Shown piece by piece: positions 3,951 to 63,278 of a stretch of 64,000 nt of DNA. Below the pieces are notes generated by a model, which did not search any database, was not told where the DNA came from, and saw only the letters and a list, made by a program, of their open reading frames with translations. The stretch is taken from contig JAVWTD010000001.1 of NCBI GenBank assembly GCA_036667875.1, positions 5,767-69,766 of the forward strand, written 5' to 3'. The position numbers and the translations under genes are program-made. Source of the DNA: Bacilli bacterium (GTDB lineage: Bacteria > Bacillota_I > Bacilli_A > RF39 > UBA660). The number at the start of each line of letters is the position of its first letter. The stretch's first letter is position 1.

Positions 3951-3992
3951 ATAACCTATTTATTTTTTTTCTAAAAATGATATCATATAAAT

Positions 3993-4802: not shown

Positions 4803-6149
4803 CTATTTTGTAGTAATTCTTTCTTTTTTAGGATATTTATTATTTTTTTTGTAAATTAATGTAAGTTTAATAACATTACCATATATTTTCCTATTGAGTG
4901 TGTATTGAGGATTCTTTTTTAATAATTCATTTACAATTGTAAGTCCATGTCCTCTACCTTCACCATTTGTAGAATAGCCATCTTGAGTCATTTTTTCTAA
5001 ATCAATTTTTCCTTTAAAGGTATTTGATATTGCAATAATAAAATTTTTGTTTTCTAGGTAGGCTTCTATTCCTAAGTATGGTGCTCTATCTAATTTTTGT
5101 TTTTCTAATTCTTGCATTGCATTATCTACAAGAATATTGAATATTTGAGTAATTTTTGCTCCTTCTGTATCATCGATGTATTCATCAGGTAACTTTCTTA
5201 AATCATCATCTATTTTATAAATTACAAATATATTTTTTCTATGTGCTTCAACTATTTTATTATATATTGCGGATTTTAAACTAAGACAATCTATTTTATA
5301 TGCTTCAAATTTAATATTTTCATCATCTTTTATTTTTTTCTTTTTTTCAAAAGAGTTACCAACTAAATCAATGTAATTTTTAACTTTTTGTTCATTAGTC
5401 ATTGCTCTTATTGTACAAAGAATATTATTGTTTTCATGATTTTTTAATCTGTAATCATCAACCATTTTACAAGCATCTTTTTGTGATATTTTCATCATTT
5501 TTGTATCTTCTTTTAATTCACATTTTTCTTGCTCACTTTTATAAAGATACCCTGCTACCATAAACATTGATAAAAAAGATATAATAGTAAGAAATACATT
5601 AAATAAAATACTATCATGAATAAAGTTTGTTATCAAAAGATATGAAAATATAATTAAAAATGTATAAAGAATAAATAATAATGTTTTACTATTAAATCTT
5701 ATAAATTTCTCTGATAAGAAGTCATAACAAATTTTAAGAAATTTAGTTTTAGACAAAATTAATATTGAAATTAAGAAGACAATGTTAAAGACATCAAGAC
5801 TGTAAGATGCCATAAATTCTACGGTTGTCTTATAACCAAATATAAAAATTATTGATATTGAAGTTAAAAGTTCTATACCGGCTATAAAACAATCTATAAA
5901 GATTATTGAAAAGACTATTTCTTTATTACTTTTTTCATATATTGATTTTATTGCTAAATACATTGCTCCAGTTGTCAAAAAAAATGCAAAATCAGTTATA
6001 TTTACAAAGTATTTTATTGAAGGAACAATTAACATTATTAATGATCCTAATGTAAGTTTAATTAGTTTAGGTTTTTGGTCAAAGAATTCTCCTATTATTA
6101 GAAGTATAATTATATTTCCTATTAAAGTTATTATTGTTGAGAATGGCAT
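4803..6149 (-). CDS. agrC: AgrC-like sensor histidine kinase (polytopic N-terminal sensor, GHKL ATPase C-terminal, HPK10 type)
   Basis: 448 aa. The N-terminal ~200 aa carry 5-6 TM helices. The C-terminus has NGEGRGHGLTIVNELL, a G-box-like ATP-lid. It sits directly upstream of, and overlaps, the LytTR regulator gene. Confidence 0.7.
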   Translation of the reverse strand: MPFSTIITLIGNIIILLIIGEFFDQKPKLIKLTLGSLIMLIVPSIKYFVNITDFAFFLTTGAMYLAIKSIYEKSNKEIVFSIIFIDCFIAGIELLTSISIIFIFGYKTTVEFMASYSLDVFNIVFLISILILSKTKFLKICYDFLSEKFIRFNSKTLLFILYTFLIIFSYLLITNFIHDSILFNVFLTIISFLSMFMVAGYLYKSEQEKCELKEDTKMMKISQKDACKMVDDYRLKNHENNNILCTIRAMTNEQKVKNYIDLVGNSFEKKKKIKDDENIKFEAYKIDCLSLKSAIYNKIVEAHRKNIFVIYKIDDDLRKLPDEYIDDTEGAKITQIFNILVDNAMQELEKQKLDRAPYLGIEAYLENKNFIIAISNTFKGKIDLEKMTQDGYSTNGEGRGHGLTIVNELLKKNPQYTLNRKIYGNVIKLTLIYKKNNKYPKKERITTK

Positions 6150-6853
6150 AATATATCTAACTCCTTTTTATATTTTAATGATAATAGATCTACTTCTAAT
6201 CCTGTATCAAATTTTATACTTTTCTTTTTCTTATTGATAGCTACAATTCTTTTTAAATTAACAAAACCAGATTTGTGAGTTTGAACAAAATTTTCATCAA
6301 AATATCTTCTAACTTCAATTAATGTTTTGCTTATCTCATAAGTTCCATTATCTGTAACTATTTCTGTTTTTCTACTAACATTTTCTCTTGAAATATATAA
6401 AACACTTTGTTGTCTAAAATAATAATTTGTTGATTTAGTAATTATTTCTACTACATCGTTTTTTATATCATTTTTTATTATATAATTTAATACATTTTCT
6501 AATCTATTTTTTGTATCTTTATTCTTTGTTATAAAAGATGTGATAAATAAATCTAAAGTCAATATTTCTTCTGCTGATTTTTCGTGACTGGTTAACATAA
6601 TAATATGACTTTTTAAGTCACGACTTCTTATCTTTCTTGCTGCTTCAATTCCGCTGCCTGTTGGTGTTTCAATATCTAAAATATATATTTTGTTTTTATT
6701 ATTTAAATAAGTTGCATCGTAAAACACTTGATTATAGTCATTGAATTTAGAAATCTTATATTCTATTTTTTCTTTCAATAAATAATCGTCTATTACTTCA
6801 ATAACTTTATCAACATATATATCATTATCATCGCAAATAATAATTTCAAGCAT
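6131..6853 (-). CDS. agrA: LytTR-family response regulator (AgrA/ComE-like)
   Basis: MLEIIICDDNDIYVDKV... is a receiver domain with DD and K residues. The C-terminal ~100 aa (FRQQSVLYISRENVSRKTEIVT...FVQTHKSGFVNL) is typical LytTR. Confidence 0.8.
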   Translation of the reverse strand: MLEIIICDDNDIYVDKVIEVIDDYLLKEKIEYKISKFNDYNQVFYDATYLNNKNKIYILDIETPTGSGIEAARKIRSRDLKSHIIMLTSHEKSAEEILTLDLFITSFITKNKDTKNRLENVLNYIIKNDIKNDVVEIITKSTNYYFRQQSVLYISRENVSRKTEIVTDNGTYEISKTLIEVRRYFDENFVQTHKSGFVNLKRIVAINKKKKSIKFDTGLEVDLLSLKYKKELDILCHSQQ

Positions 6854-7112
6854 AATTTTAACCTCCGTTACAACACCTCATGTTGTTAACTATATTAAGT
6901 GTACATTATTTAGAAGTAAATTACAATATTAAAAAGACATTATATGTATCTTTACATGTCTTTTTTGCCATATAATCTAAAACAGATTATGGGTTTTATA
7001 ACATAATAATTTTAATATTTTTTCTTTTCTTTTAGCAATTAAATTATACCATAATTATAGAGTTGTTTTTATAATTTAACTTATTTTTTTTATAAACAAA
7101 ATAAAAAGGATG

Positions 7113-7763
7113 TTATTTCCATCCTTCATACCAATTTTTAATTTTAGTTTTTCCATTATCAATTATTTCTTTGCTTTTTTCTTTTATTTCATTTCCTTTT
7201 TCTTTTACTTCATCAACGGTTTCTTTATATTTATCTTCTCCTACTTTTTCTATAACTTTTTCTTCTAAAAATTCTTTGGTAGACTTTATTTTTTCTTCTA
7301 CATAGATTAACACTTTTCCTGTTTTATCTTTTGTAGTTTCTTTATAATCTGGAATTTTCTTTTCAATTTTTGAATCAATACTGCTAGTTATATTTAAAAT
7401 TTTAGTTTTTGTTGTTTCATTTAATTCGTCAAAAGTAATCCCTTTTATTTCTCCGTTGTAAAATAAGAAGTCAACCAGGTTCACAAATATCTCTTTAGAA
7501 CCTTCTTTAAGTTTATCGAAACTATTGTTTTCCAAAATTTCATTTACTTCACTTTCTTTTTCTTCGAAGTAGTTTATAACATATTCATCCTTATTTTTGA
7601 TTTCTTCTGATTTATCTACATAATCTGTTATTTCAATAATATCATTTTTTGGTTCATTGTTTTCAATTTCTTTTTTATTTGTACAACCTGTTGTTACTAG
7701 AACAAAGCCTGTTAATATTACAAAAACAATTTTTTTTACATTAACATTTTTCATATTAGTCAC
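7113..7763 (-). CDS. lipoprotein, Lys/Glu-rich, function unknown
   Basis: Signal peptide with lipobox LVTTGC. Highly charged repetitive mature region. Confidence 0.5.
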   Translation of the reverse strand: MTNMKNVNVKKIVFVILTGFVLVTTGCTNKKEIENNEPKNDIIEITDYVDKSEEIKNKDEYVINYFEEKESEVNEILENNSFDKLKEGSKEIFVNLVDFLFYNGEIKGITFDELNETTKTKILNITSSIDSKIEKKIPDYKETTKDKTGKVLIYVEEKIKSTKEFLEEKVIEKVGEDKYKETVDEVKEKGNEIKEKSKEIIDNGKTKIKNWYEGWK

Positions 7764-7781
7764 CTCAGTGATATTGTACTA

Positions 7782-8084
7782 CTAATCATCATTTTTTACA
7801 ATAATATCTTTTATTTCATTTATCATAATTTTTTCATTTTCCATTGTTAGTAAATAATCTTTTGTTTTAGCTATTATTTTTTTGTTTATTACTTTATTTT
7901 CTAATTGAATTTCAACATCCATTTTATAAATATACTTTGACGATTTAAATATTTCTGCTATTTTCTTTTGTATAGATATAGGATTTTCTTTTGATGGTTT
8001 AGGATTTTCACCATAAACATATTTTTTGTTATTCATATTATTTTTAATTACAGTATTTTGAAATACTTTTGGAAGTTTTTTCAT
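7782..8084 (-). CDS. hypothetical protein (100 aa)
   Basis: ORF lies between the SGNH hydrolase and lipoprotein genes with an 18-bp spacing, so it is probably co-transcribed. No motif recognised. Confidence 0.35.
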   Translation of the reverse strand: MKKLPKVFQNTVIKNNMNNKKYVYGENPKPSKENPISIQKKIAEIFKSSKYIYKMDVEIQLENKVINKKIIAKTKDYLLTMENEKIMINEIKDIIVKNDD

Positions 8085-8130
8085 TTTTTCATCACCTATT
8101 TAAGTATATGAAAAAAATAGTAAAATCTTA

Positions 8131-9354
8131 CTATTTTTGATACATATGTGTTTGAAAATATTCCATTGCTTTTTTATTACCAGTTTCTGACAAATGAACA
8201 CCTGATTCGTTTGATGCTTCTCTATAATATCCTTTTTTTAATTGTCCATTTTCATCTTTTAAAATTCTTGAAGTATTTAAGAAAGGTATTTTCATTTCAC
8301 TACATAATTTTAACAAATAATAATTCATTTTATTTATTTTTTGATTATTTAATTGCTTTCCTTCACTGTCAAACCTAGAAGCGACTGGAAAAATAGATTG
8401 GACTATAATAACTCCTTCTGGATTTTTTTCTTTCATAGATTTTAATAATTCTTGAAATTTTGTTATAAAATAGTCTATTTCCATTGCTGCAACGCTGTTT
8501 GTTCCTAGACTTAGCAGTAAATATTTTGGTTTTTTTTCTTCATAAGCATCAATCAAAGTTTTTTTTGAATCTATATGATTAATATAAATTGTATTATTGA
8601 ATATTGTTTCTAAATTAACTCCCTCTCTATGCCATAATTGTTTACCGGTTATGTTTTTATTCATGACATAGTATAAAGCAGTTGAATCTCCTGCAAAGAT
8701 AAATTTATTACTATATTCTTCTTTACCATTTTTTGTTTCTTGCAATTGTATATCCTTATAATAAGAATCTAAACTAAATTCTTTTAAATTCATTGTTAAT
8801 GGTGAAGATTTTGTAACTTCTACTTTTCTTTTTTCAATAGCCCTATTACCATTTGAATCGGTTACACTATATTTTATTGTATAGATTCCTTCTTTTTTTG
8901 TATCAACAGTTCCCTCAGTGATGACTTTATCTTTTAAATTACCATCATAATTATCGATAGCGGCATATCCTGGATCATTAAATTTTTCATTAATAATGAC
9001 TACTATACTATTTCCTTCTTTTAATGTAATAATAGGTTTGGATAGGTCTTTCACTTCAATTTTTAAATTTCTTTGATATGTTCTGTTTTTATGTTTATAT
9101 TTAAAATTAATTTTATAAGTACCTAATTCTTTATTATTTATATTACTTTTAATTTTAATGTTACTTTGAATTCTTTTTCCATTAAATGTTGCTGTGTATT
9201 GATCTTTAAATTTTTCATTTAAATCAATAGACTTTGTTTTTAAAACAACTTTAAAAGGATAACTTTGAATATAAAACAATGTATAACCCACTATTACCAA
9301 AGTAATTAATAACAATGCAAAATTTTTTTTCTTTAATTTCTTTTTCTTTACCAT
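8131..9354 (-). CDS. membrane-anchored SGNH/GDSL-family hydrolase with an Ig-like (DUF5011-type) domain
   Basis: N-terminal TM. The central PIITLKEGN...DPGYAAIDNYDGN...YTIKYSVTDSNGN is DUF5011-like Ig. The C-terminus has FAGDST (block I), LSLGTNS (block II) and SGVHLSETG (block V-like). Confidence 0.6.
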   Translation of the reverse strand: MVKKKKLKKKNFALLLITLVIVGYTLFYIQSYPFKVVLKTKSIDLNEKFKDQYTATFNGKRIQSNIKIKSNINNKELGTYKINFKYKHKNRTYQRNLKIEVKDLSKPIITLKEGNSIVVIINEKFNDPGYAAIDNYDGNLKDKVITEGTVDTKKEGIYTIKYSVTDSNGNRAIEKRKVEVTKSSPLTMNLKEFSLDSYYKDIQLQETKNGKEEYSNKFIFAGDSTALYYVMNKNITGKQLWHREGVNLETIFNNTIYINHIDSKKTLIDAYEEKKPKYLLLSLGTNSVAAMEIDYFITKFQELLKSMKEKNPEGVIIVQSIFPVASRFDSEGKQLNNQKINKMNYYLLKLCSEMKIPFLNTSRILKDENGQLKKGYYREASNESGVHLSETGNKKAMEYFQTHMYQK

Positions 9355-9387
9355 ATTCTCACCATATTTTCTTCTATTCTAATTATA

Positions 9388-10167
9388 TCATAATTTTCTT
9401 GTAATAGTATATCCGATTAGTAATAATGCTAAACCTAAAGATATATTTAAAAAATTATAAGGATGACTAAGTGTTTCTTTTAAAATAATAAGGCTAGTGG
9501 ATATTGATAAACCAAAAATTGTATAATATGATTCATATTTAAACTTGTTAAGTACATAATATATTAATTTTGCAAACATAATTACACCAATTATAATACC
9601 AAGGATAAAAAACAGAAATAAAGGAAATTCAAATGTTGAAACTATTTTTAATAATTTTTTATAAATACCTAATGATGAAAAGATTGCAAATCCACTTATT
9701 CCTGGTATTATTGTTGTTAAAGCTTCTATAATTCCTACAATAATAATTGAAAATAGATTTAACTCGATATTAAAATGAAATTTAATTGTACTTAGGAATA
9801 ATAATACTGTAATAGGAAATAATAAAAATAGTATATTTTTTAAGTTTTTCTCTTCTTTGGTAATTTTGTAGATACTAGGTAAACCTCCAAGAATTAAACC
9901 AATAAATAAAAACATTGTTTGAATATAATACTTATTTAATAAAGAGTACATGAACTTGCTTAAAAACATTATAGAAATAACTAGTCCAATTAAAAATTGA
10001 AATAAAAATTTTGCATCATTTTTTTTAATTTTAAGTGGGTTTCCAATAATAAATAGTAATCTATCATATATGTTTAATGAAATAGCTATTAAACTCCCGC
10101 TTACTCCTGGAATTATTTTTCCAGTTCCTACTAAAAGACCTTTAAGAATATTTTTCAAGACCATCAC
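9388..10167 (-). CDS. polytopic membrane protein, possibly DUF368 (PopT-like polyprenyl-phosphate transporter) family
   Basis: 259 aa with ~8 TM helices and two repeated G-x-SG motifs (IPGVSGSLIAISL, IPGISGFAIFSSL) reminiscent of the duplicated GxSRSG motif of DUF368. The assignment is tentative. Confidence 0.35.
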   Translation of the reverse strand: MMVLKNILKGLLVGTGKIIPGVSGSLIAISLNIYDRLLFIIGNPLKIKKNDAKFLFQFLIGLVISIMFLSKFMYSLLNKYYIQTMFLFIGLILGGLPSIYKITKEEKNLKNILFLLFPITVLLFLSTIKFHFNIELNLFSIIIVGIIEALTTIIPGISGFAIFSSLGIYKKLLKIVSTFEFPLFLFFILGIIIGVIMFAKLIYYVLNKFKYESYYTIFGLSISTSLIILKETLSHPYNFLNISLGLALLLIGYTITRKL

Positions 10168-10280
10168 CTATTAAAATATATGCTTATATTGCAAAGTTTT
10201 GTCAATCAAATTAAATATTTTATCATTCTAATTGTTTTTATGTTTTATTTATTATAAACTATGTATAGTAGAGGTGTTTT

Positions 10281-12086
10281 ATGGAACAAAAAGAAATAGT
10301 CGATAGTAACGATTCAACTACAAATCAAAATATAACTGAACCTAATCTAAGTAATGATAAAAAAAATGAGACAGATTTATCTGTTCAGCCACTTAATATT
10401 GATAATACTGTGGAAAACTTGTCATTAGACGAAAATAATCAAGAAAAAGATAATGAGTTGATTATGGATGCTGTGGAAAAAACTAATGTGGATGATAATG
10501 AAAATAGTTTTACTGTGGAAAACAATAATGTAGATGATGAAAAAAATACTTTTACTGTGGAAAACAATAATGTAGATAATGGAAAAAAGAAAAAAATGTT
10601 ATTTGTTCTTTTAATTATTGCTTTTCTTTTAATCTTTATTTTTGCGGGATATAAGGTTAATGAATTTGTTCAAAAGAAAAAAACGGAAAATAAAAAACCT
10701 CCAATTATAATTGATAAAGATGATGATAAAGACAAAGAAGATAATGATAAGTTTGTACCAGAAGTAGTTTCAAATATTGATGTCATTTCTGTTTCTAGTG
10801 CTATTAATGAAGGCGTTTTGGCTGATGATTATTATTTTTCAGACTCTGTTTTTATAGGGGATAATACTATTTCAAAATTTAATAGTTATCTTTCAACTAA
10901 ACCTAATGGATTTTTAGGGAAACCATTTATCTTATATGATTCAAAGTTAAGTACTAATACTTTAGTTTCAGAAGTTAATGAAAAGTCTAATCATCCAGTT
11001 TATAATGGCACTAAAATGCTTGTTGAAGATAGTGTCAAGTTAATGGGAGCGAAGAAAGTATTTATTAATTTAGGGCATAATGATATTTTAAGTTCTGGTA
11101 TTAATAATACATTATCAAATTATAAAACTCTAATTAGTAGGATAAAAACAAAGAATCCTAATACAAAAATTTTTATTATTAATGTTGGTTATATGTTTAA
11201 AGGAACAGAGACAAAAAAAATGAATAATACTTTAATAAGAGAATTAAATGAAAAACTAAAAAACAGTTCTGCTACATGGGGTGCAATTTATATAGATATG
11301 GCTCATACAATGATAGAAAGTAATGGTTATTTAAAAGAAGAATTTTATTCTGAAGAGTCTTTACTTATTAATAATCTTGGTTATAATGTATGGGTAAATG
11401 TTCTTAGAAGAATTGCTTCTACTCAGATTGAAGCTGAAATTTTAAGCACTGCTTCATCTTTATTAAAAGCTTGTGAAACTAGTCCTTCGTATGATGCATA
11501 TAACAAGGCAGTAAAGGCTGTTGATAGAGTTCCTGAAGGAATTGCTAAAGTAGACTTTAAAAACCGTTTAATCAAGGTCTTAGCGGTTATTGAAGCTAAT
11601 TATAGTAATAAACTTACTGAAATTAAAATAAACAATGTAGCAATCGCTCTTACTAGTGGTAACTATAATTATTCTTACAATGTTCCAAATGATGCTTCAA
11701 CTGTTAATATATCAGTTAAAAAAATAAGTAATAACGCAATTGTTGAAGGTGAGGGGAATGTTAATTTAAATTTAGGAGAAAATATTTTAAAAATCATCGT
11801 AAAAAATAATGGTGAGATTATTACATATACTTTGAAAATATATAGAGCCTATGATGATAGTATTTTAAAAGTTACTATTGATAATAAGGATATAGGTTTA
11901 GATACTTTATCTTTAACTGTTCCAGCACAAGTTTCTAGTGTAATTTTAAAAGTAACTCCAACTTATTCTGGGGCAACAGTAACAGGGGAAGGTACTTTGA
12001 GTTTGGTAACCGGTACTAATACCTTCAAATTCAAAGTTTATGAAAAGATTTATACTTTAACAATTATTAGAGAGGTTAGTTCTTAA
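10281..12086 (+). CDS. membrane-anchored SGNH-like protein with an Asn/Asp-rich N-terminal region and C-terminal beta-rich repeats; catalytic Ser apparently replaced (GDN)
   Basis: AGAGGTG RBS. Has N-terminal TVENNNVD repeats, a single TM (LFVLLIIAFLLIFIFAGY), FIGDNTIS (block I with N in place of S), NLGHNDI (block III) and DMAHT (block V). The C-terminal 200 aa show repeated Ig-like segments. Confidence 0.5.
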   Translation: MEQKEIVDSNDSTTNQNITEPNLSNDKKNETDLSVQPLNIDNTVENLSLDENNQEKDNELIMDAVEKTNVDDNENSFTVENNNVDDEKNTFTVENNNVDNGKKKKMLFVLLIIAFLLIFIFAGYKVNEFVQKKKTENKKPPIIIDKDDDKDKEDNDKFVPEVVSNIDVISVSSAINEGVLADDYYFSDSVFIGDNTISKFNSYLSTKPNGFLGKPFILYDSKLSTNTLVSEVNEKSNHPVYNGTKMLVEDSVKLMGAKKVFINLGHNDILSSGINNTLSNYKTLISRIKTKNPNTKIFIINVGYMFKGTETKKMNNTLIRELNEKLKNSSATWGAIYIDMAHTMIESNGYLKEEFYSEESLLINNLGYNVWVNVLRRIASTQIEAEILSTASSLLKACETSPSYDAYNKAVKAVDRVPEGIAKVDFKNRLIKVLAVIEANYSNKLTEIKINNVAIALTSGNYNYSYNVPNDASTVNISVKKISNNAIVEGEGNVNLNLGENILKIIVKNNGEIITYTLKIYRAYDDSILKVTIDNKDIGLDTLSLTVPAQVSSVILKVTPTYSGATVTGEGTLSLVTGTNTFKFKVYEKIYTLTIIREVSS

Positions 12087-12087
12087 A

Positions 12088-12120
12088 AAAAGATATAAAT
12101 TAAATTTATATCTTTTTTTT
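12088..12120. terminator. bidirectional rho-independent terminator between convergent genes
   Basis: AAGATATAAATT/AAATTTATATCTT perfect hairpin, flanked by an A-run upstream and a T-run downstream. Confidence 0.5.
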
Positions 12121-12441
12121 ATCTATGTCATGTACTATATTATAAATGCAAGAATAACTATGTTTTCCATAAAACTTATAAAACTTTCTTATTGATGCTG
12201 ATGATCTGGTATATAACTGTCTAATCTTTTTAATTTCTTCTTCACTTAAAGCGTTGTGAGGTGATTTATTTTTATTTCCATGGTCTAACGAAATTGTTCC
12301 ATTCAAAATTTCATTTTTAAGTTTAAAAAGATATTTAGGATGATATCCAGTTATAACAGAAATTTCTTCATAAGATAAATATGTATCATTAGCAATTTTT
12401 TTATTTATAAGTTTAATAGCTTCTTTTTTATCTTTTTTCAT
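12106..12441 (-). CDS. HTH-domain protein resembling the N-terminal DNA-binding part of a DDE transposase (no catalytic domain; possible IS remnant)
   Basis: GGTGA RBS upstream of ATG at 12441. MKKDKKEAIKLINKK...ISVITGYHPKYLFKLKNEILNGTISLDHGNKNKSPHNALSEEEIKKIRQLY follows a transposase N-terminal HTH/HGNxGxxPxNALSEE pattern. The ORF-track N-terminal extension to 12600 is probably spurious. Confidence 0.35.
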   Translation of the reverse strand: MKKDKKEAIKLINKKIANDTYLSYEEISVITGYHPKYLFKLKNEILNGTISLDHGNKNKSPHNALSEEEIKKIRQLYTRSSASIRKFYKFYGKHSYSCIYNIVHDIDKKKI

Positions 12442-12542
12442 TGTAGTATCACCTATTATAATTGTAACACTAGCTATGTATAATTGCAACAGAAAAGTAA
12501 TAAAATCGAATAAAGATAAATTTAAGGTAATAAATAAAATAG

Positions 12543-12679
12543 TTTTCCACAATATATGTGGAAAACTATTAATTCGTTTGTAGTATAAAGACTTTTCCAC
12601 AGTATTAAAGCATAAATTTTAGTGAAAACAACACTAATATAAGAATAATTAATAGTATAATAATTTTTACTGTGGAAAA
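12543..12679. promoter_or_regulatory. cluster of four DnaA-box-like 9-mers (TTTTCCACA/TGTGGAAAA), including a perfect inverted pair, ~50 kb from oriC
   Basis: TTTTCCACA at 12543-12551 and TGTGGAAAA at 12557-12565 form the palindrome TTTTCCACAATATATGTGGAAAA. Further boxes: TTTTCCACA at 12593-12601 and TGTGGAAAA at 12671-12679. Confidence 0.45.
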
Positions 12680-14632
12680 CTTTCTTGTTTCTTGTTTATT
12701 TGTATTTTCAGATAATTTATTTTCTATTGTTTTTCCTTTGTTTATATTTTCTTTTTCTCCATTATAACCAATAACAAAATATTCTTCATTGTTATTTATG
12801 GATTTATAAATTAAATTCATTATATTTTCAGAAAGAATTTTAATAAATTCTACTTTATATTCATTTTCATCATTGATTTTATCGCTTGGCTTTAAAATAA
12901 TTTCTTTATCTTTTAAACTATATACGTTAATTATGTTTTCTAAAATATTTTTTCTAATTTCATTTTCACATTGGTAAAGATAAAGAGCATTTTTTATGTT
13001 ATATTTCTTTGCTTTTTTGAAACTTTTCGTTATATATTCTAAAGTCTTAAATGGTAATATTTTATCTATTTCATATAAAACATATTTTGAATTGAATTCT
13101 GAAATGTTTTTGTAAGGATTTAGTTCTTTTGAATAAATAATTTTACTTATTACTTTATCGATTAGATGTTCTAAAGTATCAAATTCATAAATTCCTTTAA
13201 AATCAGTTAAAGCATTTTCAAAATAATAAAATTTATCATTTTTAAGATAAACTAAAAAGAAATGTGGATCAGTAATTACTGTTTTATTATCACTATTAAT
13301 TTCAGTGCATATCACAAATCTTTTTACCTTTATATTATTTGCTTCTAAAAAGCAAGCTTCAAATTCAATTTGTTCATTACTACTTGCTACTTCTGAATTA
13401 AAAATATCAAGTGGATAGTTTTGAGAATATATTTTATTTAGTATAAAGTTTGTTGTTGATATGCTTTTTAAAAGTTGTGTGACTTCAATTTGAGTAGGAT
13501 TTATTTCATTTTTATGTTTAGAATAATATTTATTTAAAAAAGCTATGATTTCTGGATTATCGTATGTTATTTTTTTATTATTTCTTCCCTCAATTGATTC
13601 TAAAGCACCAAAAGGTATTTTATATGTTTCCGAGTCTATTTCAACAGTTGTTCCATATTCAATATTATTTGACATATATTTTAATAATGATTCTTCATCT
13701 ACAATTGAGTAACTTCTAAATATTTCTAAAATCTTTTTATTATTATATTTTTTGATAAGGTTAAAATTGTTTTCTATTTTAGTTTTATATATTTTTGCTT
13801 CTTTTTGTTCTAACTCTAAATCAAAAATTTCTTCGATTTTTTTTAATTTCTTATCATCAAAATTTCTATTTATAAATTTTCCTATTTCTTCGTAATAATT
13901 TTTAAATAGACAATCAAGTAATGAATATTTGTCACAGATACAATTATTTAAATAGATATCATTTTCATTTAAGCCTTTAATTTTTTCTGTGTTTAAAAAA
14001 TTTGTAATAGGAAATAATTTAAAATTATTTCCATCACTTATTCCATAGGTATTTAAGCCTATATTATTGTTATCAATTAAAATATTAAATAATATCATTT
14101 TTATATATTCACTTTTAATTATTTTTGAATTTTCAATTGAGAGGGGAATTTCTATTACTTCAATAATATCTTTTGTATTTTTTTCTTTATCCATTTGAAT
14201 AATTTTGTCTATTGTTTTACATTCTTTTTCATTTGATGTTAATAGTATATAATTTTTATTTTCATATTTTATTCTTTTTATATCTACAACATTTAATTCT
14301 AATAGTTTACCAATCTTCATTAAAGCAATCTCTAAATCATTTAAAGTTAGTGATTTATGTGTTTTTAAATATCCCACATTATTATCTACTTCTACTTTTA
14401 TATTTTTTTTGCTTTTTTCTATAATTTTTATTTCTATATTTTTATTTTGATTATATTCATTTTTTTTGTTTTCAATATAAATATGGTTTTTAATGCTTTC
14501 TTCGATTAAATCTTCAATTTCATTTTTTGTATATTCTTTCGATTTAATTTCATTTCTTATTTTATTTTTTTCATCTATTTTTAGTATTGATTTTTCTTTT
14601 AATTTTGTTTCTAAAAATTCTTGATTATTCAT
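12605..14632 (-). CDS. large hypothetical protein (675 aa) with a C-terminal transmembrane anchor
   Basis: Lys/Asn/Glu-rich. The C-terminal KFSTVKIIILLIILILVLFSL is a TM helix. No confident family assignment. Its last codons carry one of the DnaA-box-like motifs. Confidence 0.5.
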   Translation of the reverse strand: MNNQEFLETKLKEKSILKIDEKNKIRNEIKSKEYTKNEIEDLIEESIKNHIYIENKKNEYNQNKNIEIKIIEKSKKNIKVEVDNNVGYLKTHKSLTLNDLEIALMKIGKLLELNVVDIKRIKYENKNYILLTSNEKECKTIDKIIQMDKEKNTKDIIEVIEIPLSIENSKIIKSEYIKMILFNILIDNNNIGLNTYGISDGNNFKLFPITNFLNTEKIKGLNENDIYLNNCICDKYSLLDCLFKNYYEEIGKFINRNFDDKKLKKIEEIFDLELEQKEAKIYKTKIENNFNLIKKYNNKKILEIFRSYSIVDEESLLKYMSNNIEYGTTVEIDSETYKIPFGALESIEGRNNKKITYDNPEIIAFLNKYYSKHKNEINPTQIEVTQLLKSISTTNFILNKIYSQNYPLDIFNSEVASSNEQIEFEACFLEANNIKVKRFVICTEINSDNKTVITDPHFFLVYLKNDKFYYFENALTDFKGIYEFDTLEHLIDKVISKIIYSKELNPYKNISEFNSKYVLYEIDKILPFKTLEYITKSFKKAKKYNIKNALYLYQCENEIRKNILENIINVYSLKDKEIILKPSDKINDENEYKVEFIKILSENIMNLIYKSINNNEEYFVIGYNGEKENINKGKTIENKLSENTNKQETRKFSTVKIIILLIILILVLFSLKFML

Positions 14633-14720
14633 GTTCTACATCACACCTATCTTTTTCATTATAACATTTTAATTTGCAAAAAAAAACAGTATTTAAGATA
14701 AATTAAAAAACTTATTAAGT

Positions 14721-15824
14721 TTATTTTAATAAGTTTTTAATCTTTTCCCAAGGAAGATCTAAGTCATCTCTTCCAAAATGTCCATAAGCCGCTAGTTCAT
14801 AATATTTAATATTTAATAAATTCAATTCGTCAATCATGTTTGAAACAGTAAAATCAAAATTTTTAGAAACAAAGTTTTCAATTACATTTTTTGTTACTTT
14901 TTCAGTATTAAATGTTTCTATCATTATTGATATTGGCTTTTCTTTACCTATTGCATAAGATACTTGAATCTCACATTTTTCTGCTAAATCATGGGCTATA
15001 ATATTTTTTGCGACATATCTACAATAATAAGCTGCGGAACGATCAACTTTTGATGGGTCTTTACTGCTTAAACATCCTCCTCCAACTCTTGAATAACCAC
15101 CGTAAGTATCTACTATAATTTTTCTTCCTGTTGTTCCTGAATCACCGAATGAACCTCCGATAACAAATGATCCACTTGTATTTATAAGGAATTTTGTTTT
15201 TTTATCAATTAATTCTTTTGGTATAACTGGCTCAATTATATTTTTAATTATATATTCCTTTAAATATTCTTGTGTAACTTCTTTGTCATGTTGACTTGAT
15301 ATAATAACTGTATCGATTCTTGTTGGTATTCCATTATTATATTCAATAGTTACTTGAGTTTTTCCATCAGGTTTTAAAGGTGATTTATTGTCACTTTTTC
15401 TAACAATTGTCATTTGTTTTGCAAGCTTATTAGCTAGACATATAGGTAATGGCATCAATTCTTTTGTTTCATTACATGCGTAACCAAACATAATTCCTTG
15501 GTCTCCAGCATGTATTTTATTTTTTTCTACTGCTTTGTTGATTTCTTCTGATTGAATTCCAACTTTTACAAGTACTTCATATTTTTCGTTATATCCAATT
15601 TCTTTTATAACGTTTTTAGCAATTTCTTCATAATTTAAATTAGCTTTTGTTTTTGCTTCTCCATATATTAATATAAAATTATCTTTTATGGTAGCTTCTA
15701 CAGCCATTTTGCTGGTTTTGTCAATCATAAGAGCAGTATCTAAAATTTTGTCTGCGATTTTATCACAAATTTTATCTGGATGTCCTTCCGTTACAGATTC
15801 ACTAGTAAAATAATATTTTTCCAT
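14721..15824 (-). CDS. metK: S-adenosylmethionine synthetase
   Basis: FTSESVTEGHPDKICDKIAD, GDQGIMFGYA and GGGAFSGKDP-like motifs. Confidence 0.9.
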   Translation of the reverse strand: MEKYYFTSESVTEGHPDKICDKIADKILDTALMIDKTSKMAVEATIKDNFILIYGEAKTKANLNYEEIAKNVIKEIGYNEKYEVLVKVGIQSEEINKAVEKNKIHAGDQGIMFGYACNETKELMPLPICLANKLAKQMTIVRKSDNKSPLKPDGKTQVTIEYNNGIPTRIDTVIISSQHDKEVTQEYLKEYIIKNIIEPVIPKELIDKKTKFLINTSGSFVIGGSFGDSGTTGRKIIVDTYGGYSRVGGGCLSSKDPSKVDRSAAYYCRYVAKNIIAHDLAEKCEIQVSYAIGKEKPISIMIETFNTEKVTKNVIENFVSKNFDFTVSNMIDELNLLNIKYYELAAYGHFGRDDLDLPWEKIKNLLK

Positions 15825-15844
15825 ATTTCCTCCTCTATAACTCT

Positions 15845-15990
15845 ATCAAAAAAAACTCTTAAGAAAGAGTTTTACGTACCTTTATAAATACTTCTTTCTT
15901 ATCGTTATTAGCTGTACCACCTTGCTTATTGCAGGTTGGTGTGAGATCTTAGAGCTAATTCTCTCCCTCACTCTTGATAAAAGTTATATC
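15845..15990 (-). promoter_or_regulatory. SAM-I (S-box) riboswitch with intrinsic terminator in the metK leader
   Basis: Reverse strand reads CUUUUAUCAAGAGUGAGGGAGAG..GCUCU..CACACCAACCUGCAAUAAGCAAGGUGGUACAGCUAAUAACGAUAAGAAAG, matching the S-box consensus UUAUCAAGAG.GG.GGAGGGA...CAACC...GGUGCUAA...GAUAAG. It is followed by AAAACUCUUUCUUAAGAGUUUUUUUU. Confidence 0.8.
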
Positions 15991-16025
15991 TAAATTATAT
16001 CATTTTAATTTTTTTTGTCAAGATA

Positions 16026-17189
16026 TTATAAATCTTTTCCAGCACTATATCCTGTTGATAATGCTAGTGTTAAATTATACCCACCAATAGGTCCATGTAT
16101 ATCTAAAGCTTCTCCTATAAAGTAAAAAGTTGGATTTATAGTTGATTCAAATGTTTTGCTATTTATGAATTTCATGTCTATTCCTCCACCTGTAACGTAT
16201 GCATTTTTTAATGATTCTACAGATTTAATAGAGTATTTCATATGCTTTAAAATATTTATAATATAAATAGTATTTTTTTTGCCTAATTGTTTTATTTTGG
16301 TTTCTCTTTTAATATTTGCTTTTTCTAAAATAAAATCACTATATTTTTTTGAAAAAATAGTTGATAAAAAAGTATGGATTTCTTTTTCTTGATCAAAGTT
16401 TTTAATTTTAAATGCTAGTATTTCTTCACTTTGATATGGAATATTATCTATTTCAATTTCTTTATATTTTTCTTTAAAGATATGTTCACTCATTAGCATT
16501 ACACTTGTCCCACTTAATCCTTTATGAGTATAAATTAAATTTCCTTCTTTAATTATTTTTCCACATTTAACCAAAACATTATCAATTGATGTTCCAGGAA
16601 TATTAGGAGGATCTATCAGATTTATTGATACTTCAGCAGGATAGACATTTGTAATTGGTTGCTTTATCATTTTTGCAAATTTTAGATTATCTCCTGTTGA
16701 ACCAGTTTGAGGAAAGCTTAGTCCTCCTGTTGCTATAATGATTTTTTTTGTTTCATATATATTTTTATTAGTTATTACTTTTCCTTTTTCTAAGCCTATT
16801 ACTTCTTCATTAAAGTGAATATCACCTTTATAACTATTTAAAAGTGCTTCTAGTATAACAAAAGATTTATTTGCAACAGGAAATATTTTTCCATCTTCTT
16901 CTTGTTTAAGTTTTACATTCTTTTGCTCAAAAAAGAGCATTATTTCTTTTGGTCCAAAAGTATTAATAGTGCTATACAAATATTTTTTATTGTGATTTAC
17001 ATTTTCCAAGAAAGTATTTAAGTCTTTTTTATTAGTTAAGTTACATCTTCCTCCACCTGTTAAAAGTAATTTCTTTCCAGCGTTACTATTTTTTTCGATA
17101 ATCAGTACTTTTTTATGACATTGAATGCCAGCCATTAAGCCTGATGGACCTGCGCCTATAATTATTGCATCATACATATTTTCACCCAA
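16026..17189 (-). CDS. HI0933/BaiN-family flavoprotein (NAD(P)/FAD-dependent oxidoreductase)
   Basis: YDAIIIGAGPSGLMAG (FAD fold) and GGGRCNLTN signature. Confidence 0.8.
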   Translation of the reverse strand: MGENMYDAIIIGAGPSGLMAGIQCHKKVLIIEKNSNAGKKLLLTGGGRCNLTNKKDLNTFLENVNHNKKYLYSTINTFGPKEIMLFFEQKNVKLKQEEDGKIFPVANKSFVILEALLNSYKGDIHFNEEVIGLEKGKVITNKNIYETKKIIIATGGLSFPQTGSTGDNLKFAKMIKQPITNVYPAEVSINLIDPPNIPGTSIDNVLVKCGKIIKEGNLIYTHKGLSGTSVMLMSEHIFKEKYKEIEIDNIPYQSEEILAFKIKNFDQEKEIHTFLSTIFSKKYSDFILEKANIKRETKIKQLGKKNTIYIINILKHMKYSIKSVESLKNAYVTGGGIDMKFINSKTFESTINPTFYFIGEALDIHGPIGGYNLTLALSTGYSAGKDL

Positions 17190-17402
17190 ACTTATTATAT
17201 CATGAAATTCTTTTTTGTTGCTAAATAGTACATATTTTAAATAAAAAGTCCTTGACTTATAATCTATATTAGATTATGATATAGTAGTTAAGAAACAATA
17301 TAGAAGTGTTTATATATTATTTATTATAAATATTAAACATTCTACGAAAAAAATTTACTAAGCATAAGATTAAATAAGAAAATAATTCAAGGAGGAAGAG
17401 TA

Positions 17403-17930
17403 ATGAATTGTATAAGAAAGATAACAGATGAAGATTTAGGGTTAGAATCGGTTAAATTTAATAATCCTCGCATAAGATTAGGTGCTAGAGGTATTGTTAT
17501 TAGGGATAATGGAGATATTGCTGTATTTAATAAAACGGTAAAAAATGAATACAAATTGCCAGGTGGTGGAATTGATGAAGATGAAGAACCTCGTGAGGCA
17601 TTTAAAAGAGAAGTTTTAGAAGAAACAGGTTGTACTATTGAAATTATTAATGAATTAGGTTTTATTGAAGAACTTAAATCATTAGATAATTTTATGCAAA
17701 AATCATTTGTATTTGTAGGTCGTGTTATTGAAGATACTCATAACTTTGAACTAACAGAAAAAGAAAAAGCAGAGGGTGCTAGACTATTATGGTGTAAGCC
17801 AGATGAAGCATTAAAATTAATTGAAAATTGTTCTAAAGATTTGAAGGCTTCTGCTTATGAAAATTTATATCATAGTAAATTTATTTGTCTAAGAGATCAA
17901 GAAATCATGAAAACTTATTTATCTATATAA
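17403..17930 (+). CDS. NUDIX hydrolase
   Basis: Nudix box GGGIDEDEEPREAFKREVLEETG. Confidence 0.8.
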   Translation: MNCIRKITDEDLGLESVKFNNPRIRLGARGIVIRDNGDIAVFNKTVKNEYKLPGGGIDEDEEPREAFKREVLEETGCTIEIINELGFIEELKSLDNFMQKSFVFVGRVIEDTHNFELTEKEKAEGARLLWCKPDEALKLIENCSKDLKASAYENLYHSKFICLRDQEIMKTYLSI

Positions 17931-17936
17931 TATGAA

Positions 17937-17970
17937 AATAGCTATTCAGTAATGAATAGTTATTTTTTGA
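17937..17970 (+). terminator. rho-independent terminator after the NUDIX gene
   Basis: AATAGCTATTCA-GTAA-TGAATAGTTATT hairpin (one mismatch) followed by TTTTT. Confidence 0.4.
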
Positions 17971-18026
17971 ATTAGTAATTTATTATATATATTAGACTAT
18001 AAAAAAAAGGATTTTTAATTCTTTTT

Positions 18027-19886
18027 TTATGATATTATATCACATATTAAATTTGTAATTTCTGTTGGATTTTCAAGTTCTAGTCCTTCAATCATTCTTG
18101 CTTGTGCATATAATACTTTTGTATATTTTTCTAGTTTTTCTTTGTCATTTTCATATAATGTTTTTATTTTTTCTGCTATTTTATGATTTTGATTTATTTC
18201 TAAAACCATATTAGCTTTAATTTTTTCATCTGTTGGCATTGCATTTAAAACTTTTTCCATTTCAATAGATACATCACCTACGGTTGATAAACAAACTGGA
18301 TGACTTTTAAGATTGTTAGTAAATTTAACATCAATATTATTTAATGAGTTTTTCATAATTTCTAATATATTTTTGTTTTCCTCATTAATTTTTGATATTT
18401 CTTCTTTTTCTTTGTCAGAGTCAATATCTAATTTCTTTGTCGAAACATTTACAAAGTTCTTTTCTTTATGACTAACAAGAATTTGGAATACAAATTCATC
18501 AATTGCGTCATCAAGATATAAAACATCATATTTTTCTTTTACTTTTTCAACTTGTGGAAGATTGTCAATTGCTTCAATTGTTTGTCCACAGGCATAAAAT
18601 ATTTCTTTTTGATCTTCTTTCATATTTTCTACATATTCATCAAGTGTTACATAGTCTTTTTTTGTTGATGAATAAAAAATAAGTAAATCTTTTAATTTTT
18701 CTTTATCCATTCCATAATTATTATAAGCACCAAATTTAATAGCTGATCCAAAGTTTTTAAAGAATTTTTTGTATTCTTCTTTGTCTTCCATCATATTCTT
18801 TAATTCTTTGATTAATTTTTTTTCTAAACTTTTAGCAATTTGTTTTACTTTTGTATCTTGTTGTAACATTTCTCTTGATATATTTAGTGATAGATCTTCG
18901 GTATCTACAATTCCTTTAATAAAACTAAAGTAGTCAGGTAATAATTCTTCACATTTATCCATAATTAGCACACCGTTTGTATATAGTTGTAATCCTTTTT
19001 TATACTCTTTTGTGTAATAATCTTGGCTTGTGTGACTTGGAATAAAAACAAGACTATTATAACTACATAAACCTTCTACACTAAAGTGAATAGTTTTTTG
19101 AGGTTCTTTGTAATCATAGAATTTTTCACTATAGAAATTTATATATTCATCGTTTGTAATATCTTTTTTTTCTTTTTTCCAAAGTGGAATCATTGAATTT
19201 AATGTTTGTAATTCCTTAACATCCTCGTATTCATCAGTGTTTTCTTTTTTTACACTATTTGTTATTTCCATTTTAATTGGAAATTTTATGTAATCTGAAT
19301 ATTTCGATATCAACTCTCTTAGTTGATATTCAGTTAGATATTCACTATAATTTTCTTCGTCAGTGTCATCTTTTAAATATAACTTAATTGATGTTCCATT
19401 TTTATTATTGTCTATTTCTTTTATTTCATATCCGTCAATTCCGTTTGAAGTCCAAAGATATGATTTTTCTTCATTATATTTTTTGCTTATTACTTCTACT
19501 CTTTTTGCAATCATAAATGAAGAATAAAATCCTACTCCAAATTGTCCAATTATATTTAGGTCGTTTTGATTTTTGTTTTCTTCTTTAAATGAAAGTGATC
19601 CACTTTTTGCAATTGTTCCTAAATTATCTTCAAGTTCTTCTTTTGCCATACCTATTCCATTATCAATAATGGTTAATGTTCTTTTTTTATCGTCTACTTC
19701 TATTAATATTTGAAGTTCTTCTTTATTAACCTTTATTTTATTATCTGTTAATGATGTGTAGTACAATTTATCAATAGCATCACTTGAATTAGATATTAAT
19801 TCTCTTAAAAATATATCTTTATTTGTATATATAGAATTAATCATCAATTCTAATAATCTTTTTGATTCTGATTTAAATTGTTTCAT
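18027..19886 (-). CDS. htpG: molecular chaperone HtpG (Hsp90)
   Basis: ELISNSSDAIDKL..., IGQFGVGFYSSFMIA. AAGAGGT RBS before ATG at 19886; the ORF-track start at 19955 adds a 23-aa extension. Confidence 0.9.
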   Translation of the reverse strand: MKQFKSESKRLLELMINSIYTNKDIFLRELISNSSDAIDKLYYTSLTDNKIKVNKEELQILIEVDDKKRTLTIIDNGIGMAKEELEDNLGTIAKSGSLSFKEENKNQNDLNIIGQFGVGFYSSFMIAKRVEVISKKYNEEKSYLWTSNGIDGYEIKEIDNNKNGTSIKLYLKDDTDEENYSEYLTEYQLRELISKYSDYIKFPIKMEITNSVKKENTDEYEDVKELQTLNSMIPLWKKEKKDITNDEYINFYSEKFYDYKEPQKTIHFSVEGLCSYNSLVFIPSHTSQDYYTKEYKKGLQLYTNGVLIMDKCEELLPDYFSFIKGIVDTEDLSLNISREMLQQDTKVKQIAKSLEKKLIKELKNMMEDKEEYKKFFKNFGSAIKFGAYNNYGMDKEKLKDLLIFYSSTKKDYVTLDEYVENMKEDQKEIFYACGQTIEAIDNLPQVEKVKEKYDVLYLDDAIDEFVFQILVSHKEKNFVNVSTKKLDIDSDKEKEEISKINEENKNILEIMKNSLNNIDVKFTNNLKSHPVCLSTVGDVSIEMEKVLNAMPTDEKIKANMVLEINQNHKIAEKIKTLYENDKEKLEKYTKVLYAQARMIEGLELENPTEITNLICDIIS

Positions 19887-19964
19887 ATTTATACCTCTTT
19901 TCTGGAGTGTTTTACCACCTCTATAAGTTATACCACTCTTTTTAGCAGTTGTCAATATAGAGTG

Positions 19965-20771
19965 CTAAAATTTATTTTTATGATTTTTTTTGAAATATTT
20001 TGCTATAAAATATGTTAAAGTTAGTGCTATAGAAATGATAATATAAAATAACATTATATTATTTATAGCATCAATATTTAACTTTATCGGTAATTTTAAT
20101 TTGTCAGAAATTTTAAAATTTATCTTATTTATAAAATTTGGTAATAAGAAAATAAATGAAATTCCTACTGTAAAAAAAGATATAGAAAAATTTAGTAACC
20201 AATAATCTGCTAAAACTATTATAAGTAAAGATAAAACAGTGATAATTGCAATAATACAATATAATAAAATCTTAGATGATAAAAAATTATAAATTTTTAT
20301 TATATTTTTTTGTTTGTCAGTAAGGTTGTTTTTGAATGTTTGAGTCAATTTTTTGTATATTTTATCTTCATTTTGTTGATTTATTATTTCAATAACTTTT
20401 TCTTTTTGTTTATCAGATAATGTTGTATTATTGACTATATTAATAAATTCTTTTTTTGTATTTGGAGTCTTTTGATTTTCATTTGATAATACGTTATCAA
20501 TAAATGTCTGCAAATATATTTTAGTTATATTTTCTAATTCATTACTTATTAATATTTGATTTTCAATTTCATTAATGTCTTTTGAATTCAAAGTTGCTAA
20601 ATTATTTTTTATAGACGATATTATGACAGTTTTTACTTCTGTTTTAACAAACGATTCGTTTATACTTTTAATACTTATTTCTTTAAGTGTTAAAATTAGA
20701 GCAAACAATGATAGAGTAATCATAAAAATAAAAGTTAATAGAATGGTAAAGATTTTTTTCAATAATTTCAT
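19965..20771 (-). CDS. hypothetical membrane protein
   Basis: N-terminal TM, Asn/Lys-rich central region, three C-terminal TM helices. Confidence 0.45.
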   Translation of the reverse strand: MKLLKKIFTILLTFIFMITLSLFALILTLKEISIKSINESFVKTEVKTVIISSIKNNLATLNSKDINEIENQILISNELENITKIYLQTFIDNVLSNENQKTPNTKKEFINIVNNTTLSDKQKEKVIEIINQQNEDKIYKKLTQTFKNNLTDKQKNIIKIYNFLSSKILLYCIIAIITVLSLLIIVLADYWLLNFSISFFTVGISFIFLLPNFINKINFKISDKLKLPIKLNIDAINNIMLFYIIISIALTLTYFIAKYFKKNHKNKF

Positions 20772-62794: not shown

Positions 62795-63278
62795 TTTTTA
62801 CACCTCCTGAACTTAAATTTCGGTTGCTTTATACATTATATATTCAAAAGCTTGTTTTGTCAATAAATTTATATGGATTGTGGAAAAAAAATATGATTAG
62901 TATGTGATAATGTCTTAAGTGGTGGTACTGGCTAATTATATGGATTGTGGAAAAAACCTATGAAATTTACTTTTGCACAGTAAAAAAAATATTAATGTGG
63001 AAAATTGTTGTTGTATTAATTAATTATAATGATGCAATCCACATTTTCTGTGGAAAACTTAATTATGCACTTGTGTATAACCATTTATCAACATTTTTGT
63101 GGATTACTTTATAGTATCCATTGTTTTTAAAGTCTTTTTTTTCCACAATTTTATTTTTTCGTAATAATATAATATTTCCCAATGTTTTCTTTATAATATA
63201 AGTGCTTTTTTTTACAAATGATATTGTAATTTTAAAGAAAATAATCTAAAATGGGATTAGACGAAGTGAGGTGATGAA
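62795..63278. other. chromosomal replication origin (oriC) between rpmH and dnaA, with at least seven DnaA boxes and an AT-rich unwinding region
   Basis: TGTGGAAAA at 62879, 62946, 62996 and 63049. AATCCACAT at 63036. TGTGGATTA at 63098. TTTTCCACA at 63139. A 21-bp direct repeat TTATATGGATTGTGGAAAAAA occurs twice (near 62866 and 62935). A very AT-rich stretch at 63150-63240 precedes the dnaA RBS. Confidence 0.75.

Follow-up and report, generated by a model that had tools for sequence, protein, structure and literature searches.

A 64,000-nt stretch of a Bacilli genome (contig JAVWTD010000001.1 of assembly GCA_036667875.1, GTDB lineage RF39, UBA660), called the window in what follows, was found to contain eight perfect copies of the DnaA-box 9-mer of its own replication origin, oriC, arranged in two clusters, A and B, which bracket a gene coding for a small regulator of the helix-turn-helix (HTH) type. 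The locus is interpreted as an origin-proximal, bipartite DnaA-box cluster, which would bind DnaA and would buffer it and/or control the flanked HTH gene; a probability of about 0.6 is assigned to this reading. Four observations carry it: the boxes are enriched, they are identical to those of oriC, their DNA is conserved across species, and this conservation is independent of protein sequence.

The G+C content of the window is 24.9%. The 9-mer TTTTCCACA is found, as an exact match on either strand, 14 times, whereas 1.25 +/- 1.0 occurrences are expected from 100 dinucleotide-preserving shuffles, none of which reached 14. All of these boxes but one (13 of 14) fall in three groups, oriC, cluster A and cluster B (Table 1); the lone one, at 16557-16565 within a gene for an HI0933-like oxidoreductase, is the only unclustered perfect box of the window. 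When up to one mismatch is allowed, nine boxes per 300 bp are counted at oriC, six at cluster B and four at cluster A. Other groups of three or four such boxes exist in the window, consisting of imperfect boxes only, and clusters A and B are the sole places outside oriC where perfect boxes cluster at all. The Poisson probability of finding four boxes within 137 bp, as in cluster A, is 2e-12; it rises to 3e-9 if the two boxes forming the arms of a hairpin (see below) are counted once, and to about 1e-6 after correction for all windows. Conservative collapsing, combined with multiple-window correction, leaves values of about 1e-6 to 1e-9 per cluster. A background of 0.085 boxes per kb was measured over 551 kb of related genomes; the density of cluster A, 29 per kb, is about 340 times higher.

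Table 1. Position of the features discussed in the text, in window coordinates.
Feature	Position	Strand	Remarks
Cluster B	10409..10579	.	exact boxes at 10409, 10472, 10514 and 10556 (TGTGGAAAA on + strand); one-mismatch boxes at 10487 and 10571
Gene for 601-aa GDSL-lipase-like / cadherin-like membrane protein	10281..12086	+	convergent with HTH gene; 5' part carries cluster B
Gene for 111-aa bipartite HTH protein	12106..12441	-	between the two box clusters
HTH-gene promoter, likely sigma-70	12461..12489	-	TTGCAA - 17 nt - TG-extended TACAAT
Hairpin, likely intrinsic terminator	12538..12570	-	14-bp stem, 5-nt loop, then TTATTTATTA; made of two boxes
DnaA box TTTTCCACA (cluster A)	12543..12551	+	promoter-proximal arm of inverted pair; TGTGGAAAA in HTH-gene sense
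DnaA box (cluster A)	12557..12565	-	TGTGGAAAA on + strand; second arm of inverted pair, 5-nt spacer ATATA
DnaA box TTTTCCACA (cluster A)	12593..12601	+	distal box, 50 bp from the proximal one
DnaA box (cluster A)	12671..12679	-	in 3' end of the 675-aa coding sequence, codons F-S-T-V
Gene for 675-aa protein	12605..14632	-	hydrophobic C-terminal tail (tail anchor read from sequence); 3' end and terminator carry cluster A
oriC / dnaA-promoter box array	62879..63147	.	five exact TTTTCCACA and relaxed boxes in rpmH-dnaA spacer

The right end of the window is a canonical origin neighbourhood, in which dnaA, rpmH, rnpA, yidC, jag/khpB, mnmE, mnmG, rsmG and a ParB-like gene are found; rnpA spans 62293-62625 and dnaA starts at 63279, which confirms the location of oriC. 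An earlier inspection of the same DNA, the sequence-only reading, had described a DnaA-box cluster at 12543-12679, composed of the box variants that also build oriC and located about 50 kb from it. These statements are borne out by the four exact boxes found there, far above chance, by the five in the rpmH-dnaA spacer and by the distance of 50 kb, within the window, from the boxes upstream of dnaA. The same reading had named a genome-wide frequency of the 9-mers comparable to the local density as what would speak against a cluster, and the background reported above for related genomes is far lower. The ParB-like protein, of 718 aa (53994-56150, minus strand), is encoded next to rsmG and carries ParB_N and HTH_ParB domains within its first 200 residues, followed by a long C-terminal part with no assignment; uvrB is directly next to its gene, and no ParA/Soj gene adjoins it.

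Cluster A spans the 3' end, the terminator and the downstream spacer of a gene coding for a 675-aa protein. It had been described as located in the spacer, which is correct for three of its boxes (spacer 12442-12604), while the one at 12671 lies inside the coding sequence of the 675-aa protein and is specific to the species of the window. The proximal boxes, previously seen as a perfect 24-bp palindrome with ATATAT at its centre, form instead the inverted pair TTTTCCACA-ATATA-TGTGGAAAA, with a 23-bp core (9+5+9) and a 5-nt spacer. Its complementary arms reach 14 nt (AATAGTTTTCCACA / TGTGGAAAACTATT, 12538-12570). The pair begins 53 nt upstream of the -35 hexamer of the HTH-gene promoter.

The conservation of cluster A was evaluated on related loci, designated by L-numbers (for example L004, L009 and L082), and the resulting alignment contains five distinct sequences from three species. 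Further contigs (L082-L084, L097-L101) were fetched from two of the three species having the family of the 675-aa protein. Boxes persisting while their surroundings diverge had been put forward by the sequence-only reading as a comparative check, and this is the pattern observed: upstream of the promoter, 22 of the 36 box columns (61%) are invariant, against 35 of the 194 other columns (18%). Two boxes in HTH-gene sense, TGTGGAWAA and TGTGGAAAA, are position-invariant, 50-52 bp apart, in the five sequences. The proximal one (12543..12551) is unchanged in 5/5, and the distal one (12593) is orthologously kept as TGTGGAWAA in 3/3 species, its position 3 alternating between A and T. Position 3 is the classic degenerate position of the DnaA box.

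Partner boxes, completing inverted pairs, appear and vanish among the relatives. One pair with a spacer of 5 is present in the window, two pairs with a spacer of 4 in the L009 type, and one pair with a spacer of 6, having one mismatch in one arm, in L082; L004 has no inverted pair, the second arm being degenerate. Among L009-type strains the boxes are unchanged, the mutations being in the spacers of the pairs (GTTT or ATTT versus ATAT). The perfect-box arm stays invariant while its partner decays in L004 and L082, which indicates a constraint beyond hairpin pairing. Apart from these, the 775 kb of related DNA contain a converging box pair with a 4-6-bp spacer only in the dnaA-upstream origin region of one relative. 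This relative carries TTTTCCACA-AAAAC-TGTGGAAAA, with 5-bp spacing, in its dnaA-rpmH spacer (L088:2247-2269, also L087 and L089-L093); its YidC is 74% identical, and the spacer of the pair is polymorphic (AAAAC/AAATC) with intact boxes. Both genes flanking this pair point away from it and no gene ends there, which argues for a DnaA-site module and not only a terminator.

Cluster B, which had gone unreported, lies 2 kb from cluster A and includes six boxes in 171 bp. It is contained within the GDSL-like gene, where the boxes are codons of an acidic, low-complexity N-terminal tail ahead of a hydrophobic, predicted membrane segment, each exact box being read as xxT-GTG-GAA-AAx (T/A-V-E-N/K). GTG accounts for 4.5% of the valine codons in the genes of the window. 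It follows a T-ending codon at 4/4 V-E-N/K sites of cluster B, versus 1/17 of the other V-E-N/K sites. Two of the boxes stem from a 42-bp tandem duplication; with three independent events, the figure for this GTG use is about 1e-4. Three 42-bp (14-codon) tandem units are seen at 10471-10596, each opening with a DnaA box, and the duplication has thereby multiplied the boxes.

In the L009-type ortholog the tail cannot be aligned as protein, yet four to five boxes occur in the same segment of the gene (L009, L083, L097, L100 and L101). Three of them are read as V-E-K/N and one, in opposite orientation and in another frame, encodes S-Y-P-Q; a near-box of this cluster is perfect in some strains. 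L083, a locus of 22 kb, has no boxes besides the eight of clusters A and B. The L004-type species has neither the GDSL-like gene nor cluster B. A DNA motif kept where the peptide varies, at the cost of rare codons, provides the strongest argument for selection of the boxes as DNA sites, independently of protein sequence. Between the convergent GDSL-like and HTH genes, a perfect inverted repeat with 17-nt arms (AAAAAAAGATATAAATT / AATTTATATCTTTTTTT, 12085-12119) has the appearance of a bidirectional terminator of almost pure A/T and was not picked up by a scan requiring G+C.

The inverted pair of cluster A is also able to fold, in RNA, into a hairpin located 35 nt past the stop codon of the 675-aa gene. 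The stem has 14 pairs, 4 of which are G-C, the fold z-score is -4.4, and the sequence following it on the strand of the gene is UUAUUUAUUA. This is the longest stem among the terminator-like matches at 1-20000, and its shape is like that of the others (AAAATAG...CTATTTT). A stem-loop followed by a T-tract, just past a stop codon and on the strand of the gene, has the features of an intrinsic terminator, and the pair is likely to terminate the 675-aa transcript. L004 and L082 retain both the hairpin and the T-run. Known RNA families gave no match in the 10-13 kb region of the window.

The start codon of the HTH gene is the ATG at 12441, preceded by an AGGTGA ribosome-binding site; a 164-aa open reading frame (ORF) is an upstream extension of this gene. 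A total of 170 relatives of the 111-aa protein were found in databases, and the best 120 are 106-179 aa long. In 28 aligned relatives, 54-83% identical, 39 residues are invariant, including those of an HGNKN-KP linker motif; none of the 28 is truncated, their lengths being 106-130 aa (P0078 with a 19-aa N-terminal extension). When one genome per species was scanned, 80 HTH loci were identified, one per assembly, in varied gene contexts. The relatives come from gut metagenome-assembled genomes (MAGs) labelled Bacilli, Tenericutes or Mycoplasmatota. The promoter of the family is conserved, spacer included, across about 79 genomes (L002-L081), as TTATcTTGcaAAaAtATtAc...tg.TataaT, then GGTGAT. The conservation of the spacer suggests an operator inside the promoter, and possibly autoregulation. 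What the three box-bearing species have in common is instead CGATTTTATTAC, just upstream of the -35 hexamer (about 12498-12509 in the window).

Comparison of the HTH protein with Pfam and NCBIfam returned weak transposase-type HTH matches only: HTH_28, HTH_23, HTH_29 and the N-terminus of an ISNCY family (44 residues, E = 0.027). In the AlphaFold model, with a predicted local distance difference test (pLDDT) score of 85, two three-helix bundles are joined by the conserved linker. The fold search was weak (best E = 0.06): a CRISPR repeat-binding protein ranked top by E-value, the bipartite DNA-binding domain of the Tc3 transposase had the highest probability (0.96), and paired domains were also retrieved. 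A PDB sequence search with the HTH profile gave no match, and neither did the phage and plasmid collections. The HTH protein is thus a DNA-binding protein which stands alone, is encoded in single copy and has a fold of the transposase type. It had previously been taken for a transposase-HTH fragment, a description which does not fit a full-length family of about 110 aa, present in single copy in 80 genomes behind a conserved promoter. A remnant of an insertion sequence (IS) or transposase was rejected: the resemblance covers 44 residues only, no truncation is seen, and each genome has one locus.

A protein 99% identical to the 675-aa ORF is on record, annotated as hypothetical, for a 'Bacilli bacterium' MAG. 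The full-length family of the 675-aa protein is confined to three species-level groups, with 44-48% identity between species, and the order metK - 675-aa gene - HTH is conserved in all three. Pfam and NCBIfam gave no match, a metagenome scan with the alignment of the family found no confirmed relatives, and the AlphaFold model (pLDDT 53) is too poor for structure searches. In an exhaustive profile search only the central region (about 395-545) turned out to be common to many small proteins (170-220 aa), one of which weakly matches the transglutaminase-like family DUF553 (E = 4e-4). Nothing in the Pfam, NCBIfam and profile results ties the protein to replication.

Boxes upstream of the HTH gene are present in only 2 of the 80 loci, L004 and L009, which are also the only ones sharing the order metK - (small ORF) - 675-aa gene - HTH. 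The idea that the HTH gene is generally linked to DnaA boxes was accordingly rejected. Loci with at least three boxes in 300 bp near the HTH gene number 5, against 0.03 expected. In a second clade, a lipoprotein-like gene found two genes downstream from the HTH ortholog carries three to four DnaA boxes in the 5' portion of its coding sequence (L017:6143-6282 and L042:3044-3421). They are read in different frames, as lipobox C-G-K, E-V-I-H-S and T-V-E-K, and only one is common in position to L017 and L042, indicating box turnover with a maintained count; the homologous gene of the window (7113-7763) has no boxes. In L073 (5368-5568), a P-type ATPase gene has three boxes within 200 bp, 1 kb on the downstream side of the HTH ortholog, and one of these boxes is again encoded as F-T-V-E-N. 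The clusters near the HTH gene in L017, L042 and L073 are real, and their number is not clearly above what 579 kb taken at random would contain. An apparent cluster in L010 was discarded, its boxes coming from the codons of a GxGxxG motif.

According to the proposed mechanism, DnaA would occupy clusters A and B, as it does at the six non-origin clusters of B. subtilis. The locus, being 50 kb from oriC, would be duplicated right after initiation and would then draw free DnaA off the origin, by titration or buffering. Bound at about -90 to -150 of the HTH promoter, DnaA would tie expression of the HTH gene to its own availability and, bound within the first 300 nt of the GDSL-like gene, it would do the same for that gene. 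The inverted pair would have two roles: in duplex DNA, it would provide two head-to-head DnaA sites; in RNA, a hairpin ending the 675-aa transcript ahead of the HTH promoter. That cluster B is lost along with its gene, and that the box spacing is fixed at 50 bp, speaks more for gene control; that the sites are many and perfect, that they lie close to the origin, and that a 19-bp indel falls between boxes and promoter, speaks more for a DnaA sink. It is improbable, on present evidence, that in this clade of reduced, AT-rich Bacilli DnaA-handling loci are coded in disordered tails of envelope proteins around head-to-head pairs with the geometry of boxes I and II of the E. coli DARS element discussed below, a module also seen in the origin region of a relative, that the clusters cooperate, by DnaA-mediated looping or nucleotide-state switching, in a dedicated replication-control element, and that this element makes the HTH protein, conserved clade-wide, an sda-like checkpoint regulator; if true, the cooperating clusters would be a regulatory DnaA locus in Bacilli beyond simple titration.

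Several points weigh against a locus which binds DnaA in order to buffer it or to control the HTH gene. Occupancy of the two clusters by DnaA is a prediction from their sequence, and only 8 of 269 in-vitro DnaA sites are occupied in vivo in B. subtilis (PMC4447404). The terminator can explain part of the conservation of the inverted pair. Of 80 other genomes with this HTH gene, about 77 lack boxes in its upstream region, hence DnaA control would not be general to that gene. The distance between the proximal box and the -35 hexamer varies by 19 bp among species, which weakens a model of geometry-dependent activation. The third species (L004/L082) keeps only two to three boxes, without the GDSL-like gene or cluster B; the total of boxes is thus not strictly maintained, which weakens a pure titration model. 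The origin proximity of the cluster is established in the window but not in the related species, where YidC and the 652-aa gene were not found together on a single retrievable contig.

Among the other explanations, the one to be taken most seriously restricts the role of the boxes to gene regulation: DnaA would be a transcription factor acting on the HTH gene through cluster A and, as a roadblock in the first 300 nt, on the GDSL-like gene through cluster B, with no meaningful effect on initiation. This is a possible, clearly less probable account, which is not mutually exclusive with the preferred one. Two orthologous boxes, at a fixed spacing upstream of a conserved promoter, and a cluster B vanishing with its gene in L004/L082 are consistent with it, and from such clusters in B. 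subtilis DnaA activates sda and represses dnaA, ywlC and yydA (PMC3245932). The 19-bp indel, the boxless HTH gene of the other genomes and a number of perfect sites exceeding the usual need of a single promoter argue the other way. It is very unlikely that the palindrome is nothing but the terminator of the 675-aa gene, the remaining boxes being accidents of an AT-rich sequence and of V-E-N coding repeats. The hairpin, with its record stem length and T-tract, and the 42-bp duplication that made two boxes of cluster B would fit, and terminator function is likely to be one component of the feature; it does not account for the whole of it. With pair and duplication each counted once, the probability for each cluster is still about 1e-6. 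Conservation of the distal box, which is unpaired and invariant in three species, equals that of the paired ones, and one box arm stays perfect while the other drifts in L004 and L082. No T-tract follows the proximal pair of the L009 type, the same geometry recurs in the origin region of a relative where nothing terminates, and cluster B persists while the protein diverges, using another frame and rare GTG codons.

A still smaller chance is given to the possibility that the 9-mers only look like DnaA boxes and are operators of another protein, such as a dimer of the adjacent HTH protein. An inverted repeat does adjoin a gene for a DNA-binding protein; against this, the oriC boxes of this very genome have the identical sequence, single 9-mers make up most of the sites, the spacer of the pairs ranges from 4 to 6 bp, position 3 alternates between A and T as in DnaA boxes, and about 77 genomes encoding the same highly conserved protein have no such sites near its gene. 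Least probable of all is a second or relic origin, or the origin or scar of an integrated mobile element, consisting of two clusters bracketing a small gene. The bipartite layout, with clusters about 2 kb apart, and DNA which is AT-rich throughout recall an origin. The GC skew, however, is negative throughout the window, its cumulative value falls steadily across 12.5 kb, and the sole blip comes from the lone plus-strand gene at 10.3-12.1 kb. Genes on both sides of 12.5 kb are on the minus strand and dnaA is 50 kb distant, so that neither the switch in skew and orientation nor the gene neighbourhood of a chromosomal origin is seen. No iterons, rep gene or integrase were found at the locus. A repeat search detected only the 42-bp coding repeat and chance matches, with no repeated AT-rich element, and an unwinding element was not recognised at the locus, DnaA-trios having been judged by eye only. 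On these data a second origin is unlikely. The scar of a mobile-element insertion, suggested in the sequence-only reading, has no support, given the lack of phage and plasmid relatives of the single-copy HTH family and the gene order kept in three species.

A DnaA-reactivating sequence (DARS) was considered as well: the head-to-head pair would hold two DnaA AAA+ domains face to face and promote the release of ADP, thus reactivating DnaA. In DARS, boxes I and II are in opposite orientation, 5 bp apart, and Gln208 of E. coli DnaA, at the head-to-head AAA+ interface, is required for activity (Sugiyama et al. 2019, PMC6868365); for the core of DARS1 and DARS2, PMC5295017 cites Fujimitsu 2009. DARS1, as read from MG1655, is TTATCCACt-ATTCC-TGTGGATAA-cca-TGTGTATtA. 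The window pair (12543-12565) has the same convergent orientation, with the CACA ends facing, and the same 5-bp spacer as boxes I and II. It lies at a non-origin chromosomal locus with a further box nearby (12593), and a pair with this spacing recurs in the origin region of a relative. In contrast, no box with up to two mismatches adjoins either arm, so that the same-orientation box III, located 3 bp past box II in DARS1, is missing, the next box being 27 bp off and inverted. The spacer is not constant among species (4 bp in the L009 type, 6 bp in L082), and L004 has lost the partner box. BLASTP alignment of the window DnaA with that of E. coli places an Asp opposite Gln208 (FVDD vs FVQD), IHF and Fis sites are not expected at the locus, and in the literature consulted no regulator of the nucleotide state of DnaA is known for B. 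subtilis (PMC5295017). A DARS-like element is therefore quite unlikely, and the resemblance is to be considered a lead, not membership.

Replication control beyond E. coli and B. subtilis is poorly mapped, and we know of no experimental system for uncultured gut lineages of the Bacilli/Tenericutes-like kind. In such a genome, the locus represents a concrete, conserved candidate for a non-origin DnaA-binding site. Rare codons, and a box count kept while the peptide diverges, are signs that selection can maintain initiator sites in coding sequence; scans for DnaA-box clusters limited to intergenic regions would miss half of such a locus. The small, widely conserved HTH regulator is a possible output of replication status. 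The gain is incremental, the kind of element being already known, unless the head-to-head pairs prove DARS-like or looping in function.

Among known systems, the datA locus of E. coli, which in the summaries given by PMC3245932 and PMC5295017 is about 1 kb long, has about five high-affinity boxes and lowers the initiation potential, acts through IHF-dependent ATP hydrolysis and belongs to another phylum; nothing in the window locus speaks to hydrolysis. The bipartite oriC of B. subtilis has box clusters on both sides of dnaA, between which DnaA-mediated looping is possible in principle (PMC5295017). The window locus differs from it in not being beside dnaA/dnaN and in having no strand-bias switch and no recognised unwinding element.

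The closest counterpart is provided by the six non-origin DnaA-box clusters of B. subtilis, mostly near oriC and placed beside different genes in each Bacillus species (Okumura et al., PMC3245932). Deletion of all six causes early initiation (PMC3245932), even if their role in initiation is judged modest in reviews (PMC5295017). The sequence-only reading had compared the locus with such clusters and had regarded their positions as species-specific; both views agree with the published description. The window locus shares with them several consensus boxes of oriC sequence within a few hundred bp, outside but close to oriC, and a location next to species-specific genes. The setting is also comparable, since two genes of B. 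subtilis have a cluster between their 3' ends (PMC4447404) and another cluster is upstream of the small regulator gene sda. It departs from them in that 5 of its 8 exact boxes are in coding sequence instead of being intergenic, a descriptive difference not mechanistically required, and these are in the tail-coding parts of two membrane-protein genes. The host is uncultured, 25% GC and probably a small-genome member of the Bacilli. The distinctive traits are the two clusters, 2 kb apart, bracketing a regulator gene, their being partly buried in coding sequence, and the box pair which doubles as a terminator hairpin. By analogy, the locus can be filed with the B. subtilis clusters, an element type already described in the literature (PMC3245932), and the outputs expected of it would be the same, namely buffering of DnaA and control of the neighbouring genes.

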